Positions 484-17,045 of a DNA stretch of 64,000 bases are shown here, piece by piece (the first letter of the stretch is position 1; each line of letters begins with the position of its first letter). Both the position numbers and the translations under genes were made by a program. The DNA is from Nitrospinota bacterium. GTDB taxonomy: Bacteria; Nitrospinota; Nitrospinia; Nitrospinales; VA-1. The stretch lies in assembly GCA_014382285.1 (NCBI GenBank), contig JACNKA010000116.1, positions 1,395 to 65,394 on the forward strand, in the 5' to 3' direction. The notes below the pieces were generated by a model that had not been told where the DNA came from, did not search any database, and worked only from the letters and a program-made list of their open reading frames with translations.

Positions 484-744
484 CTACTTTCCGGGGGTCG
501 GGTCAGGAGTGTGGCACATTGTACAGTTGCCCATCGGGCGGTGAGGCATGATGGGGATTTTCTCCACTCCCTGGATGTGGCATTGCATGCACTGTTCTGC
601 CGGGAGAGAGGCCTTATGGTATTCGGACGTTCTAAAGTCTGGAGCAGCACTGATGAATGAATAGCCCAGGCCACCAATAACGCCAACCCCGATCAGCATC
701 ATAAATCTATAAAAGTTTCTTGTTCCGTTTGATTTTTTTGCCAC
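484..744 (-). CDS. Small membrane-anchored diheme c-type cytochrome (NapB-like heme-motif pattern)
   Basis: 86 aa. It has an N-terminal TM helix (FYRFMMLIGVGVIGGLGYSFI) and two CxxCH motifs (CMQCH, CTMCH). The segment 'IPIMPHRPMGNCTMCH' resembles the P-H...CxxCH spacing of NapB-type diheme cytochromes. No reductase partner lies in the window. Confidence 0.7.
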   Translation of the reverse strand: MAKKSNGTRNFYRFMMLIGVGVIGGLGYSFISAAPDFRTSEYHKASLPAEQCMQCHIQGVEKIPIMPHRPMGNCTMCHTPDPTPGK

Positions 745-806
745 AATGTTTTTGCCAGGTTGAGGTGAACTATTTTAGCCCGCATATTGTATGAGAGTTT
801 TTAAAT

Positions 807-13397: not shown

Positions 13398-13435
13398 CAA
13401 AAATAAAGCCGACCCCGTTAAACGGGATCGGCTTT
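13398..13435 (-). terminator. Rho-independent terminator of the bd-like/cytochrome c operon
   Basis: AAAGCCGACCCCG(13405-13417) pairs with CGGGATCGGCTTT(13423-13435): 12 bp, one mismatch, 5-nt loop. On the minus strand it is followed by ATTTTTG. It lies 19 nt after the cytochrome c stop. Confidence 0.75.
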
Positions 13436-13453
13436 ATGAATTTTAAAATTATT

Positions 13454-14713
13454 TTAGAGCAAGGGATCGAGGAACATCTCTTTGGTTGTCCAGCTCTCTA
13501 TCTCTTCTTTGGTGGGGATGGGTGGTACAGGCCGTTTGGCTGTGCGTTTATCCAGAGGATCATGGAAGGTTCGGGCATAGGCCTCAGCCTTCCAAAGATA
13601 AAGATGCTCAAAAATCATTCCCCAAGGCGCCATAGGCGTGTTGGGAACACCACGGGTAACACGGCGGTACCACAGATCATCCGGCCAGTCTTTTAACAGT
13701 TTGTCGGTATGATCACCTTCAATTTTATCAGTGTCTTTGTTATTTTCATCTCTAAAATCAAGTGCTCCAGTCATCATAGGAGTGCCATCCTTGCCATGAC
13801 AGACTGCGCAACTGAGTCCTTCAGTCGCAGGGTGTACACCTTCAAACACCTGTTTACCTTCGGCAAGGACGTCTTTATCGTCCCACCAAGTCCATTGATT
13901 GGGGAATTTTCCTTCAACCGGCATATGGGTCGGGTCTCGCAGGGTCTTTAAATAAGACACCAGGGCATGCAATTCGTCTTCACTCAAGTCATCGCCATAA
14001 TAAGTTGGCATGGCTTTTTTGGATTTTGGATCCTCAAAACCCGGAGCTTGATTTGCTCGAGGGTCGAGGATCTGACCTTTAATATAATCCTCGGAGTAAA
14101 GGCCAATTTGTTTGCTACCCAAGTTGGGGCCACGGTCTGAATTGCCTTCCCAGAACACTTTATGACAGTTGAAACATTTGTTGTTCTCGAACACTTCGCG
14201 TCCAGCGGCGATGACTTCAGGCCCCGCCAACCCGGTCAACACAATAGGAGGCCTGTTAAGCTTGGCAAGTTCAAGTTCGGGGTCAAACTGCGGCAGTTGT
14301 GCGGTCACGCCAATAAATATGCCGGAGGCGAGGGCGTAGGTAGCAAGAAGACGCTTGACCGAGTCAAAATTAGATTTTTCCAGTTTGAGGGTTTTCCAGT
14401 CAAGAAGCGCGAAGAAAAAGAAACCCACAAAAACGAAAGATACAAATTCTATTTGCCACCAGACAGGAAAGTTAAACTTGCCAGCCAGAACCCAAACACC
14501 CCCAGCTATAACGATGGTGACTGGGAGCTTGAAGCGAATATTCTGGAAAAGAGTTTTTTCTTGTGTCTTTTTGGATTTGATTTTGAGGAGGAGGGCATAT
14601 GTAATCATCACCGCCAACCCGGCACCTGCCCCTAAAGCTCCAAAAGTGCTGAAAAGTGCGTACAGACCACTTAACGCGGCAATTAAGCCAACAATGATAA
14701 AATCAATTTTCAT
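13454..14713 (-). CDS. Membrane-anchored (4 TM) diheme c-type cytochrome
   Basis: 419 aa. Four N-terminal hydrophobic helices are followed by two heme-c motifs, CFNCH (res 180-184) and CAVCH (res 302-306). Candidate distal Met residues are present (KKAMPTY, TPMAPWG). It starts 23 nt after the bd-like gene stop. Confidence 0.85.
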   Translation of the reverse strand: MKIDFIIVGLIAALSGLYALFSTFGALGAGAGLAVMITYALLLKIKSKKTQEKTLFQNIRFKLPVTIVIAGGVWVLAGKFNFPVWWQIEFVSFVFVGFFFFALLDWKTLKLEKSNFDSVKRLLATYALASGIFIGVTAQLPQFDPELELAKLNRPPIVLTGLAGPEVIAAGREVFENNKCFNCHKVFWEGNSDRGPNLGSKQIGLYSEDYIKGQILDPRANQAPGFEDPKSKKAMPTYYGDDLSEDELHALVSYLKTLRDPTHMPVEGKFPNQWTWWDDKDVLAEGKQVFEGVHPATEGLSCAVCHGKDGTPMMTGALDFRDENNKDTDKIEGDHTDKLLKDWPDDLWYRRVTRGVPNTPMAPWGMIFEHLYLWKAEAYARTFHDPLDKRTAKRPVPPIPTKEEIESWTTKEMFLDPLL

Positions 14714-14736
14714 TAACCGTTTGCTCCTGAAAAATC

Positions 14737-16809
14737 TTATTCGGCCATTTGCGGTGAGGCTTGCGTAGGCGCGATCTCTTTCTTTTTGGTTTTAGGATAC
14801 TTGATTCCGATCCAGATAATGGCTGTCATCAGGATGAAAAAAGTCCAGACTAATGTTGTGACGTGAAAGCCTGACTCAGCCAGGCTCGGCGCAAATTTTT
14901 CAGGCGTCACATCCTTAAAGACTTTATAGACATGCCAGTTCATCCGCGATAGTTCTCGAATGGTGCCCATCCAACTCATCAGCCAGATATCGGCGAAACC
15001 GAGGAAAATGAGCACATACGGCCCGAGTGGATTAATTTTACCGTAATGTACTTTTCCGGTTTTGGTGGCTATCGTATAGAAAATATAATTGATGAAAGTA
15101 ACGGTCACCAGACAGAACGCCGCTGTATTCTTTGAAATCATCAGCGCCAGAAAGGCCAGATTATCGGGTAAAACCATATCCGGATTCATATGCGGTTCGG
15201 GTAGCATGGTGGCAAAAAAGCGTCTGGGAGTGAACCAGATTGTTGCCGAAATCACAATCAATATGAACCCAAACCTCATGGCCGGGAAAAACCGCTCGGC
15301 GTTTTCAATACGCTTCATACTGACCCACATATAAATATTACTGGCGCTGAACATGGTTCCGACCAGAAGTCCTTGCACCAGCATGAACATGGATTCTCGA
15401 TCGGACATGATGTACATGCCGATGGTGGCATCATATTGATAAATTTCGCGGACAAAAATATAACCCATTGCCGGCAGGGGAATCATAATGGCAACGCCGA
15501 TCAGGTTGCCGATGTATCCGACCCAATCATAGTATTCCCGCTCTTCTGTCTTGTCTGACCACAGGTACATATAGGCACCAATGATACAAACCATATATCC
15601 ACCAAAAGTGCCGTTACCGACCAGTCTGTGATAGTTCAGAGGCATCCATGCCATATTGGCAATTCTGTCCCACTCGCTTATATTGAGGAGTTGGTCAAGA
15701 GGCTTGGGCGGTGTCTGCATGAAGGTTGCCGGACCATCCAGGGCTACTAGAAGAGAAAGACCCAGAACATTGAGAATTACACCCGTAACTATATGTCGCC
15801 CTTTTTTGTTGGACTTGTTCAGGGGATCCCAGGAGTAAACGTATATGTACATGACCACCGTTTCCAGAATAAACAGGGTGGGGTAGGCCACCATAAAGAG
15901 TGTCGGAAACGAGGATATGAGATAACTAATGAAATCCTGATAGGCAACCAGCATAACGAAGAGAAAGAGCCCTCCCGTCAGTGCCGTGAAACTATAACAA
16001 ATACCAATTACCTTGGTGATTTCATGAGCCAGACGTTCAAATTTGTAATCGGATTCGGCAAACATGATGCCATTGGAGATCAAGCCGCCGATCGCTCCGT
16101 TAACCACAGCGAGAATAATGCCGGAGACCTCATAATGCTCGACCGGTGTCAGTGCCATGGAAATCAGGGCTCCAAACAACGCTCCAACAAAGGCAGATGC
16201 GCGGATATTCATCAAACGGTGGAAATAATTCAGGAAACTGACTATTAGAGCCCCGAAGGCACAGGCCCACAGGCCATATAACACGCCATGGTGGATTCCA
16301 ATTATGACCTCACCCGTGATTCCGACAACAACACCTATAAGAACTCCTAAAAACACGTTTGAGAGGATAATTGCTTTACGCACCCCCTGTGTCCGGCGGG
16401 CACCCATGACTTCCATGATGACCACGAACATGGGACATCCCAGAATGAAAGAGGCGAATAGTATATGAAGCTGAGCCGCAGCCCAAGTGAACTTGCGGTT
16501 GCTCATGCCCAGAAACGAGAATTCTTCAAACTCGTGATCTGCAGCAGGTCCAATATCGGTTAAATAGGAGAGGTCTTCTTCTTCGGCTTCTCCTTCTCCT
16601 TCTCCTTCTTCATCGCCTTCTTCTTCCTCATCATCCTCTTCATCTTCCTGGGCGTATGCCAGGGACTGAAAACTCAGATTTGCAAAGAGGGAATTAGTAG
16701 AAGCAGGAAGGAAAGGGGTTAAGTGCCCTAACATATAAACAAAGATAATGCAGATGAGGGATTTGAAAAAAGTACTCTTAAAAGAACTTTGAGATTGATT
16801 CATCATCAC
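14737..16809 (-). CDS. Cytochrome bd-like (CydA-related) polytopic membrane protein, no CydB partner
   Basis: 690 aa. After a signal/anchor and an acidic run, 'FTWAAAQLHILFASFILGCPMFVVIMEV' resembles CydA helix 1 (E. coli ..TAMYHFLFVPLTLG..), including the His. 'DYKFERL...FTALTGG' and 'FILETVVMYIYVYSW' resemble the CydA helix 2-3 region. I count about 15 hydrophobic segments by eye. Confidence 0.65.
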   Translation of the reverse strand: MMMNQSQSSFKSTFFKSLICIIFVYMLGHLTPFLPASTNSLFANLSFQSLAYAQEDEEDDEEEEGDEEGEGEGEAEEEDLSYLTDIGPAADHEFEEFSFLGMSNRKFTWAAAQLHILFASFILGCPMFVVIMEVMGARRTQGVRKAIILSNVFLGVLIGVVVGITGEVIIGIHHGVLYGLWACAFGALIVSFLNYFHRLMNIRASAFVGALFGALISMALTPVEHYEVSGIILAVVNGAIGGLISNGIMFAESDYKFERLAHEITKVIGICYSFTALTGGLFLFVMLVAYQDFISYLISSFPTLFMVAYPTLFILETVVMYIYVYSWDPLNKSNKKGRHIVTGVILNVLGLSLLVALDGPATFMQTPPKPLDQLLNISEWDRIANMAWMPLNYHRLVGNGTFGGYMVCIIGAYMYLWSDKTEEREYYDWVGYIGNLIGVAIMIPLPAMGYIFVREIYQYDATIGMYIMSDRESMFMLVQGLLVGTMFSASNIYMWVSMKRIENAERFFPAMRFGFILIVISATIWFTPRRFFATMLPEPHMNPDMVLPDNLAFLALMISKNTAAFCLVTVTFINYIFYTIATKTGKVHYGKINPLGPYVLIFLGFADIWLMSWMGTIRELSRMNWHVYKVFKDVTPEKFAPSLAESGFHVTTLVWTFFILMTAIIWIGIKYPKTKKKEIAPTQASPQMAE

Positions 16810-17045
16810 TTAAATGAAAGGCCTGAAGTAGGCGGTAAGTACCCGTTTCCCAACGATGGAAAACCTCTGCTCCCTAAACTTTTAACCTGTTTTTTAGGTT
16901 GAAAGGACTTAAAGAATGTAGAGAAATATCATACAGGTTGGGTAAAGTCAAGAACTTTCAAAACTGTTGCTAACTAAAGGCTTGTCTAACTTTTTCAGTA
17001 GGAAAAATAAGGCGGTTTGGGAAGGTGTGATTGAAAAAGATGTGG

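Follow-up and report, generated by a model that had tools for sequence, protein, structure and literature searches.

A cytochrome bd-like protein of probable OR-N1 type and its dihaem cytochrome c partner form a compact two-gene unit in Nitrospinaceae

We analyzed a 64,000-nt stretch of a Nitrospinota genome (assembly GCA_014382285.1, contig JACNKA010000116.1, positions 1,395 to 65,394; hereafter the window) for a pair of adjacent genes that encode a 690-aa cytochrome bd-like membrane protein and a 419-aa membrane-anchored dihaem cytochrome c. Sequence, profile and fold comparisons agree that the 690-aa protein is a member of the cytochrome bd subunit I (CydA) superfamily, and it is probably the Nitrospinaceae orthologue of Nitrospira "bd-like_1", within the OR-N1 subfamily. 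We propose that the pair is a self-contained, cytochrome-c-oxidising and probably O2-reducing membrane module, a reading to which we give about an even chance of being right. The family itself is already known, the observation is not new in kind, and the inference drawn in an earlier note on this DNA, that electrons are exchanged with periplasmic cytochrome c and not with quinol, equals a published hypothesis. What we add to prior work is the cytochrome fusion, the invariant trio of modules, the genomic contexts in outgroups, an insertion and an acidic tail in the bd-like protein, and the five-helix anchor of the cytochrome.

The two genes are encoded on the reverse strand as follows:

14737..16809 (-), bd-like CydA homologue of probable OR-N1 type, 690 aa (open reading frame, Pfam, alignments, AlphaFold2 [AF2] model)
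13454..14713 (-), membrane-anchored dihaem cytochrome c, 419 aa (open reading frame, Pfam, invariant residues)

The Pfam model Cyt_bd_oxida_I (PF01654), which the earlier note had named as a check, scored 30.8 bits against the 690-aa protein, above its cut-off of 26.2 (E = 1.5e-7), in a match confined to residues 244-449; the first transmembrane (TM) helix lies 115 residues upstream of this match because a lineage-specific insertion intervenes. Alignment of an 81-sequence family profile to E. coli CydA using hhalign was collinear over about 400 columns (query residues 105-634 against CydA 9-460; E = 5.6e-6, probability 85.6%). The diverse profile was required for this result, as hhalign with close orthologues alone aligned just 55 columns, and phmmer and hmmsearch comparisons of the bd-like protein and a close-orthologue profile with PDB sequences matched the acidic tail alone and returned nothing meaningful. 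A Foldseek search of the PDB using the AF2 model of the protein (predicted local distance difference test [pLDDT] 76.7, predicted template-modelling score [pTM] 0.75) gave cytochrome bd chain A (CydA), with a probability of 1.00, for all of its top ten matches. Besides a signal peptide, the protein contains about 15 TM helices (11 core and 4 inserted), and its conserved part maps to:

14737..16053 (-), conserved CydA core, aa 253-690 (MAFFT and hhalign alignments, family conservation)

Within this fold, the following CydA positions were recovered:

16402..16500 (-), TM1, aa 104-136, with H115 (E. coli CydA H19, a ligand of the active-site haem) and E133 (E. coli E37) (MAFFT, hhalign)
E316, equivalent to E. 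coli CydA E107, a proton-channel residue (hhalign, MAFFT)
H339, equivalent to E. coli CydA H126 (hhalign, MAFFT)
H394, equivalent to E. coli CydA H186, a haem b558 ligand (hhalign; invariant in the family)
M557, equivalent to E. coli CydA M393, a haem b558 ligand (hhalign; invariant in the family)
E619, equivalent to E. coli CydA E445, a haem b595 ligand (hhalign, MAFFT)
R622, equivalent to E. coli CydA R448 (hhalign, MAFFT)

The earlier note had likened one helix to CydA helix 1 because of a His at the His19 position, and both alignment methods agree: H115 falls on H19 with identical spacing (H-x2-F-x5-G-x6-IME) and is kept in 123 of 124 family members. H115, H394, M557, E316 and H339 are all near-invariant among these 124 members. 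E619 is the exception, the E445 position being Glu in 12 of 14 Nitrospinaceae sequences and Ser in 55 of 59 Nitrospirales bd1 and all 46 bd2 sequences, while H626 is invariant in every group compared (Nitrospinaceae, Nitrospirales bd1 and bd2). The Y-x-Y motif that follows the E107 position corresponds to Y323/Y325 in the window protein. At the E107 position itself, Glu is present in all 78 OR-N1-type sequences examined, those of Nitrospira reading ...FIGET...; Supplementary Table 6 of Murali et al. gives G140 there for the OR-N1 reference, possibly through an off-by-one error.

Among the four E. coli positions that the earlier note had singled out, His19, His186 and Met393 are conserved and Glu99 is not, with hhalign placing A308 at that position and the invariant Y309 adjacent to it. 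E99, like E107 a proton-channel residue, is conserved as Glu in all quinol-oxidising bd oxidases. The Q-loop is absent as well: in the hhalign alignment, short helices and a TM hairpin (aa 473-525) stand in place of E. coli residues 240-390, and the region of the quinol-binding Q-loop residues K252 and E257 has no counterpart in the 690-aa protein.

We favor the OR-N1 label because the best identity of the protein is to the pet-linked paralogue, because its residue spacing agrees with that of the OR-N1 reference in Supplementary Table 6 of Murali et al., and because a NIDE0901-like protein has been published as OR-N2 in work on Nitrospirales (PMC12342949). In the preprint of Murali et al. (2021), OR-N1 is linked to pet genes and OR-N2 to a cytochrome c and ebdC; the name "bd-like_1" was introduced for Nitrospira by Mundinger et al. 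(2019). OR-N1/Nitrospira bd-like_1 is the best match outside the Nitrospinaceae (39-48% identity) and shares with the window protein the H19, H126, H186 and M393 equivalents, the Tyr beside the E99 position, the Y-x-Y motif, the lack of a Q-loop and a multi-TM extension. Also in common with OR-N1 of Nitrospirales are the TM-anchored cytochrome c gene directly downstream and the second c-haem domain, which is always present. Compared with these Nitrospirales systems, however, the Nitrospinaceae form is unlinked from petA/petB and OR-N2 (the petA/petB/petD operon typical of OR-N1 is missing at the window locus), has two cytochromes c fused into one 5-TM dihaem protein, and adds a four-helix insertion, an acidic N-terminal tail and the Glu at the E445 position. 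The paralogue OR-N2 (bd-like_2, a putative terminal oxidase of Nitrospira, and the bd-like protein of nitrite oxidoreductase [NXR] clusters in Nitrospina and anammox bacteria) resembles the window protein in its 11-TM core, in nearly all invariant residues and in having c-type cytochromes adjacent, but the identity is 31-33%, M364 is replaced by Gln in bd-like_2, and its own partners are two other cytochromes c and an EB_dh-type haem b subunit.

Canonical CydABX (E. coli bd-I and bd-II, Geobacillus, Mycobacterium) and the window protein have in common the CydA fold and H19, H186, M393, E445, E107, H126 and R448, whereas the window protein is without the Q-loop and quinol site, CydB, CydX and the E99 Glu, and has extra TM helices, a predicted cleavable signal peptide and a c-haem partner. 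The OR-C family (e.g. Desulfovibrio) and CcoP of cbb3 oxidases are similar in that c-type haem domains feed a membrane oxidase core. Unlike the window protein, OR-C has 8 TM helices, carries its haems c in the same polypeptide and is missing the H186 equivalent; the catalytic subunit of cbb3 is unrelated.

The partner encoded downstream has a 5-TM anchor (aa 1-140), a first haem domain (C180xxCH, M235) and a second haem domain (C302xxCH, M361). In both domains, the Cys and His of the CxxCH motif and the Met sixth ligands (M235 and M361, in MP-type motifs) are invariant among the sequences compared, and Pfam matches were obtained to Cytochrom_C (PF00034, 60 bits) and Cytochrome_CBB3. The protein thus qualifies as a class I c-type cytochrome with two predicted haem attachment sites. 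Haem domain 1 scored weakly against CcoP/cbb3 subunit III models, with all NCBIfam scores far below their cut-offs. The earlier note was right about the membrane anchor but had counted four helices in it; five are predicted from the AF2 secondary structure (3-21, 26-44, 55-79, 84-108 and 115-138), the helix count being the only use made of that model, and because this number is odd, both haem domains would be periplasmic.

Residues 50-262 of the cytochrome, comprising the last three anchor helices and haem domain 1, match the Nitrospira gene directly downstream of bd-like_1 (E = 1e-22 to 1e-31), and residues 263-383, comprising haem domain 2, match the small cytochrome directly upstream of it (E = 1e-19 to 1e-23). 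These matches identify the 419-aa cytochrome as the fused counterpart of the two monohaem cytochromes found on either side of bd-like_1 in Nitrospirales. Across loci, the haem domains stay the same and the anchor ranges widely in size, with 3, 5 or 9 helices. The dihaem partner with the 9-TM anchor (L036:7267-8934) shows no CydB-like signal, and the idea that the polytopic anchor is a degenerate CydB was rejected, as it had no Pfam support in the relatives scanned, the 9-TM version included.

The pair is bounded by the following elements:

14714..14736 (-), intergenic spacer of 23 nt with an AGGAG ribosome-binding site (sequence)
13403..13437 (-), intrinsic terminator, a 16-bp stem with 8 G-C pairs followed by a T-run (sequence, terminator scan)
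16918..16952 (-), promoter-like motif CTTGACTTT-N10-TATGATATTTCTCTAC, 35 nt, about 110 nt upstream of the bd-like start codon

The 690-aa and 419-aa proteins, the 23-nt gap, the two CxxCH motifs (C180 and C302) and the peptide strings quoted in the earlier note are all present in the sequence, and the strong terminator said to close the unit is the stem and T-run at 13403-13437. The promoter-like motif occurs once in the 64-kb window, found no match in 100 shuffles, and precedes the orthologous gene in 10 Nitrospinaceae loci from several genera, Nitrohelix included. We regard the motif as a probable promoter; a simple sigma-70 scan gave no call there. The conserved block is longer than a -10 element needs, and a regulator site may be included in it. 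Because the upstream motif and the terminator bound the bd-like and cytochrome c genes, the pair is its own transcription unit.

We found no cydB or cydX at the locus, in agreement with the earlier note: PF02322 had no match to either protein at E ≤ 1, and the genes around the pair are unrelated, encoding LRR, BolA, LAB_N, GT2, RlmN, Lpd and MOSC proteins. Nor did we find a second bd-like gene or a further c-type cytochrome in the window. Other frames with CxxCH motifs are without family support; one of them, a 96-codon open frame at 487-774 (-), has two such motifs and no Pfam match, and is probably not a gene. The description of the system as "CydA-only" fits this locus alone, with the qualification that a second paralogue encoded elsewhere, OR-N2, is proposed in the literature as a possible partner.

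To compare the arrangement across relatives, we classified 80 genome loci by gene order. Nitrospinaceae, Ca. Nitrohelix among them, supply the orthologues with 78-93% identity, and all of these fall within one 50%-identity cluster. The bd-like gene is followed by the fused dihaem gene in 11 Nitrospinaceae loci, and in six more the contig ends inside or just past the bd-like gene. The fused form was also present in four outgroup metagenome-assembled genomes (MAGs), namely one non-Nitrospinia Nitrospinota, one "Deltaproteobacteria" and two Anaerolineae. The order in 55 Nitrospirota loci is cytC, bd1, cytN, Rieske, cyt b, hyp, bd2, cyt c, cyt c, and at least 46 Nitrospirales loci have bd-like_1 and bd-like_2 in one cluster, about 4 kb apart. 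A single further locus (L041) has the order bd, cytN, cytC, with the three genes adjacent but unfused.

In every one of these loci for which flanking DNA was available, both haem domains adjoin the bd-like gene. A distant bd-like protein of 889 aa (P0128) even carries a C-terminal c-haem extension homologous to the window cytochrome c; it belongs to a set of distant bd-like proteins (P0128, P0131, P0151, P0161 and P0242; 29-35% identity) whose C-terminal extensions hold one or two CxxCH motifs. Because the adjacency is invariant and the fusion repeated, we regard these comparisons as strong evidence that the bd-like protein and the two c-haem modules would form one complex. Electron entry from the cytochrome c side, and not from quinol, is likewise supported at the sequence level, since the Q-loop is absent and the c-haem subunits invariantly co-occur with the bd-like protein and repeatedly fuse. 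The earlier note had suggested this exchange with periplasmic cytochrome c, and the literature had already described OR-N enzymes as lacking a quinol site and as probable users of cytochrome c (Murali et al., 2021; Nitrospinota and Nitrospirales genome papers).

The contexts in which relatives carry the module point to the electron source. The Nitrospirales module stands beside Rieske/cytochrome b genes, while neither a Rieske nor a cytochrome b gene was found in the window flanks or up to 7 kb from the pair at any Nitrospinaceae locus. In the "Deltaproteobacteria" MAG (L027:1-9504), the pair is directly downstream of alternative complex III (ACIII) genes (an ActB-like open reading frame, NrfD/ActC, ActD, ActE and a trihaem cytochrome). 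A cytochrome c oxidase is what usually follows complex III or ACIII genes. Elsewhere the pair follows genes for the alpha subunit, exported by twin-arginine translocation, and the iron-sulphur (FeS) beta subunit of a type II dimethyl sulphoxide (DMSO)-reductase-family enzyme, with no gamma subunit (L026:1532-8119); genes for a molybdoenzyme alpha subunit, an FeS beta subunit and a NarJ-like chaperone (L036:1101-8934); or genes for a NarJ-like chaperone and a further dihaem cytochrome (L033:1433-5877). These last three loci come from a groundwater Nitrospinota MAG and two Anaerolineae MAGs, in which the pair is in line with periplasmic molybdoenzyme genes; all three lack genes for a gamma or haem b subunit, and the pair sits there as though it were the enzyme's membrane partner. 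In relatives, the module is thus always placed after something predicted to deliver electrons on the periplasmic side, be it a bc-type complex, ACIII or a molybdoenzyme.

Taken together, these results suggest the following mechanism. The two genes would give rise to one membrane complex, consisting of an OR-N1-type CydA-like core and a polytopic subunit with two periplasmic His/Met c haems. A periplasmic donor, which in a nitrite oxidiser would be the cytochrome c pool reduced by NXR, would pass electrons to the haem c of the C-terminal domain, from there to the haem c of the first domain, and then to a b558-like haem held by H394 and M557. The two c haems, of high potential, would in this way take over the role of the missing Q-loop, which in canonical enzymes delivers electrons to the site of the b558-like haem. 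From the b558-like haem, electrons would move to the haem(s) at H115 and E619/H626, in the TM1-4 bundle, where the terminal reaction is most likely the reduction of O2, with cytoplasmic protons arriving along a path formed by E316, H339 and Y309. Charge separation without pumping would build the membrane potential, and the module would probably work without CydB and without an adjacent second bd-like subunit. A stronger version, in which the two-gene operon alone is a complete cytochrome c:O2 oxidoreductase on a bd scaffold, requiring no CydB, OR-N2 or copper, we put forward tentatively, as a possibility that we rate as doubtful. If true, the operon would be the long-sought terminal oxidase of marine nitrite oxidisers without haem-copper oxidases, and the four-helix insert and acidic tail would be lineage-specific additions that provide an extra cofactor or a partner-docking site.

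Several observations weigh against an O2-reducing module of this kind. Biochemical or structural work on any OR-N enzyme was not found in the searchable literature, which bears out the earlier note in its statement that this bd-like group is known from Nitrospira and Nitrospina and is biochemically uncharacterised. The AF2 model of the cytochrome is poor (pLDDT 47), the E99 position is not Glu, and the E445-equivalent Glu is specific to Nitrospinaceae; because Ser takes its place in Nitrospirales, the third haem site is uncertain family-wide. Moreover, the NXR clusters of anammox bacteria, which are strict anaerobes, encode related bd-like proteins (PMC3578206), so O2 reduction need not hold for the wider bd-like family. 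The same anammox clusters speak for an electron conduit in place of an oxidase, linking periplasmic cytochrome c or molybdoenzymes with the quinone pool in the manner of an ACIII- or NarI-like anchor and serving reverse electron transport in nitrite oxidisers, the role that Lucker et al. (2013) had suggested for the bd-like protein of the NXR cluster. The position of the pair in L026 and L036, in the operon slot of the membrane/gamma subunit of a periplasmic molybdoenzyme, would also suit a conduit. However, the Q-loop is absent and no quinol-binding site is recognisable, the residues of the TM1-4 O2-reduction bundle (H19, E107 and H126 equivalents) are strictly conserved, and the modules of Nitrospirales and L027 adjoin bc-type complexes or ACIII that already join quinol to cytochrome c, which would make a second quinone link redundant. 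On balance, we consider the conduit improbable.

A more serious contender, though in our view still an unlikely one, is a CydAA' heterodimer in which OR-N1 replaces CydB beside OR-N2 (NIDE0901-like, its Nitrospinaceae copy being located elsewhere, in an NXR-associated cluster), with electrons entering the complex as a whole through the dihaem cytochrome c. Its standing as a published hypothesis counts against our proposal: OR-N1 and OR-N2 are both conserved in Nitrospinota, and a CydAA' complex has been hypothesised there and in Nitrospirales (PMC10839748, PMC12342949). The clustering of bd-like_1 and bd-like_2 in the Nitrospirales loci noted above and the nearly complete sharing of conserved residues by the two paralogues are as the heterodimer would predict, and canonical CydA depends on CydB at its haem d interface (Murali et al., 2021). 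Against this, neither the Nitrospinaceae loci nor the four closest fused-type outgroups have another bd-like gene up to 7 kb away, the pair forms stand-alone operons in five lineages, and it has its own conserved promoter motif and terminator. In addition, the c-haem subunits track OR-N1 specifically, OR-N2 having its own cytochrome c pair and EB_dh subunit, and Murali et al. (2021) name OR-N1/OR-N2 as a possible exception to multi-CydA complexes after gene duplication. For these reasons, the self-contained module is favored here, with autonomy from OR-N2 a probable feature of it. We also considered a detoxifying haem enzyme that is not energy-conserving, a scavenger of nitric oxide, peroxide or O2 shielding the O2-sensitive enzymes of the reductive tricarboxylic acid cycle. 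Canonical bd oxidases have such detoxifying side roles. The possibility has been raised for OR-N in Nitrospinota (PMC10839748), but specific evidence for it is missing, and both the tight linkage of relatives to respiratory complexes and the strong transcription of the orthologous Nitrospira region during growth on nitrite fit core respiration better, leaving detoxification as a very remote prospect.

Nitrospinaceae carry out most oceanic nitrite oxidation. In several of them, as in most Nitrospira, a haem-copper oxidase is not recognisable, and the bd-like (OR-N) proteins are the standing candidates for O2 reduction; to our knowledge, none of these proteins has been purified so far. Ca. Nitrohelix and Ca. 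Nitronauta, for example, have no haem-copper oxidase, yet respire O2 and keep bd-like genes (PMC8026999), and the bd-like_1 region is strongly transcribed in N. moscoviensis on nitrite (PMC6606698). The locus described here leaves the picture of OR-N proteins as candidates unchanged. It is, however, the simplest known version of the system, with two genes, its own predicted promoter and terminator, and both c haems predicted in one polypeptide, whereas the Nitrospira equivalents sit in a cluster of about ten genes. The comparison of loci, through the cytochrome fusion, the independence from OR-N2 in several lineages and the placement after complex III, ACIII or molybdoenzymes, sharpens predictions about the make-up of the complex and its electron source, and the compact architecture should make it easier to test the terminal-oxidase question in marine nitrite oxidisers without haem-copper oxidases.

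An acidic tail, which follows the signal peptide, and an insertion in the bd-like protein are specific to Nitrospinaceae and map as follows:

16573..16809 (-), signal peptide, aa 1-54 (predicted cleavage between AYA and Q), and poly-Asp/Glu tail, aa 55-79 (16573-16647) (sequence, AF2)
16054..16389 (-), four-helix insertion, aa 141-252 (112 aa), in the cytoplasmic TM1-TM2 loop (alignments, AF2)

The acidic tail comes right after the predicted AYA/Q cleavage site. AF2 indicates disorder in this part of the protein (pLDDT < 50, residues 30-86). The tail varies in length but is acidic in every Nitrospinaceae orthologue and is not present in the outgroups; it may be a docking or cation-binding tail. 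The insertion is missing from all relatives at 28-48% identity and corresponds to the unaligned region in the hhalign comparison with E. coli CydA. In the AF2 model, its helices span residues 141-170, 175-195, 202-220 and 228-250 (pLDDT about 73-90), and H173 and H174 (in the periplasmic turn) and H197 (on the cytoplasmic side) are invariant in Nitrospinaceae orthologues. We rejected an internal hairpin duplication as its origin, since the score was not significant, being reached by 34 of 500 shuffles. A co-occurrence of the insertion with the extra two anchor helices of the cytochrome was rejected too, given that L019 combines the insertion with 3 anchor helices, whereas in L026 the anchor has 5 helices and the bd-like protein no insertion.

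Finally, two unrelated contigs that carry the fused pair have the same genes downstream of it, encoding a Usp-domain protein and a radical-SAM/SPASM protein with a PCP_red domain (L005:3783-8485 and L027:9560-11866).

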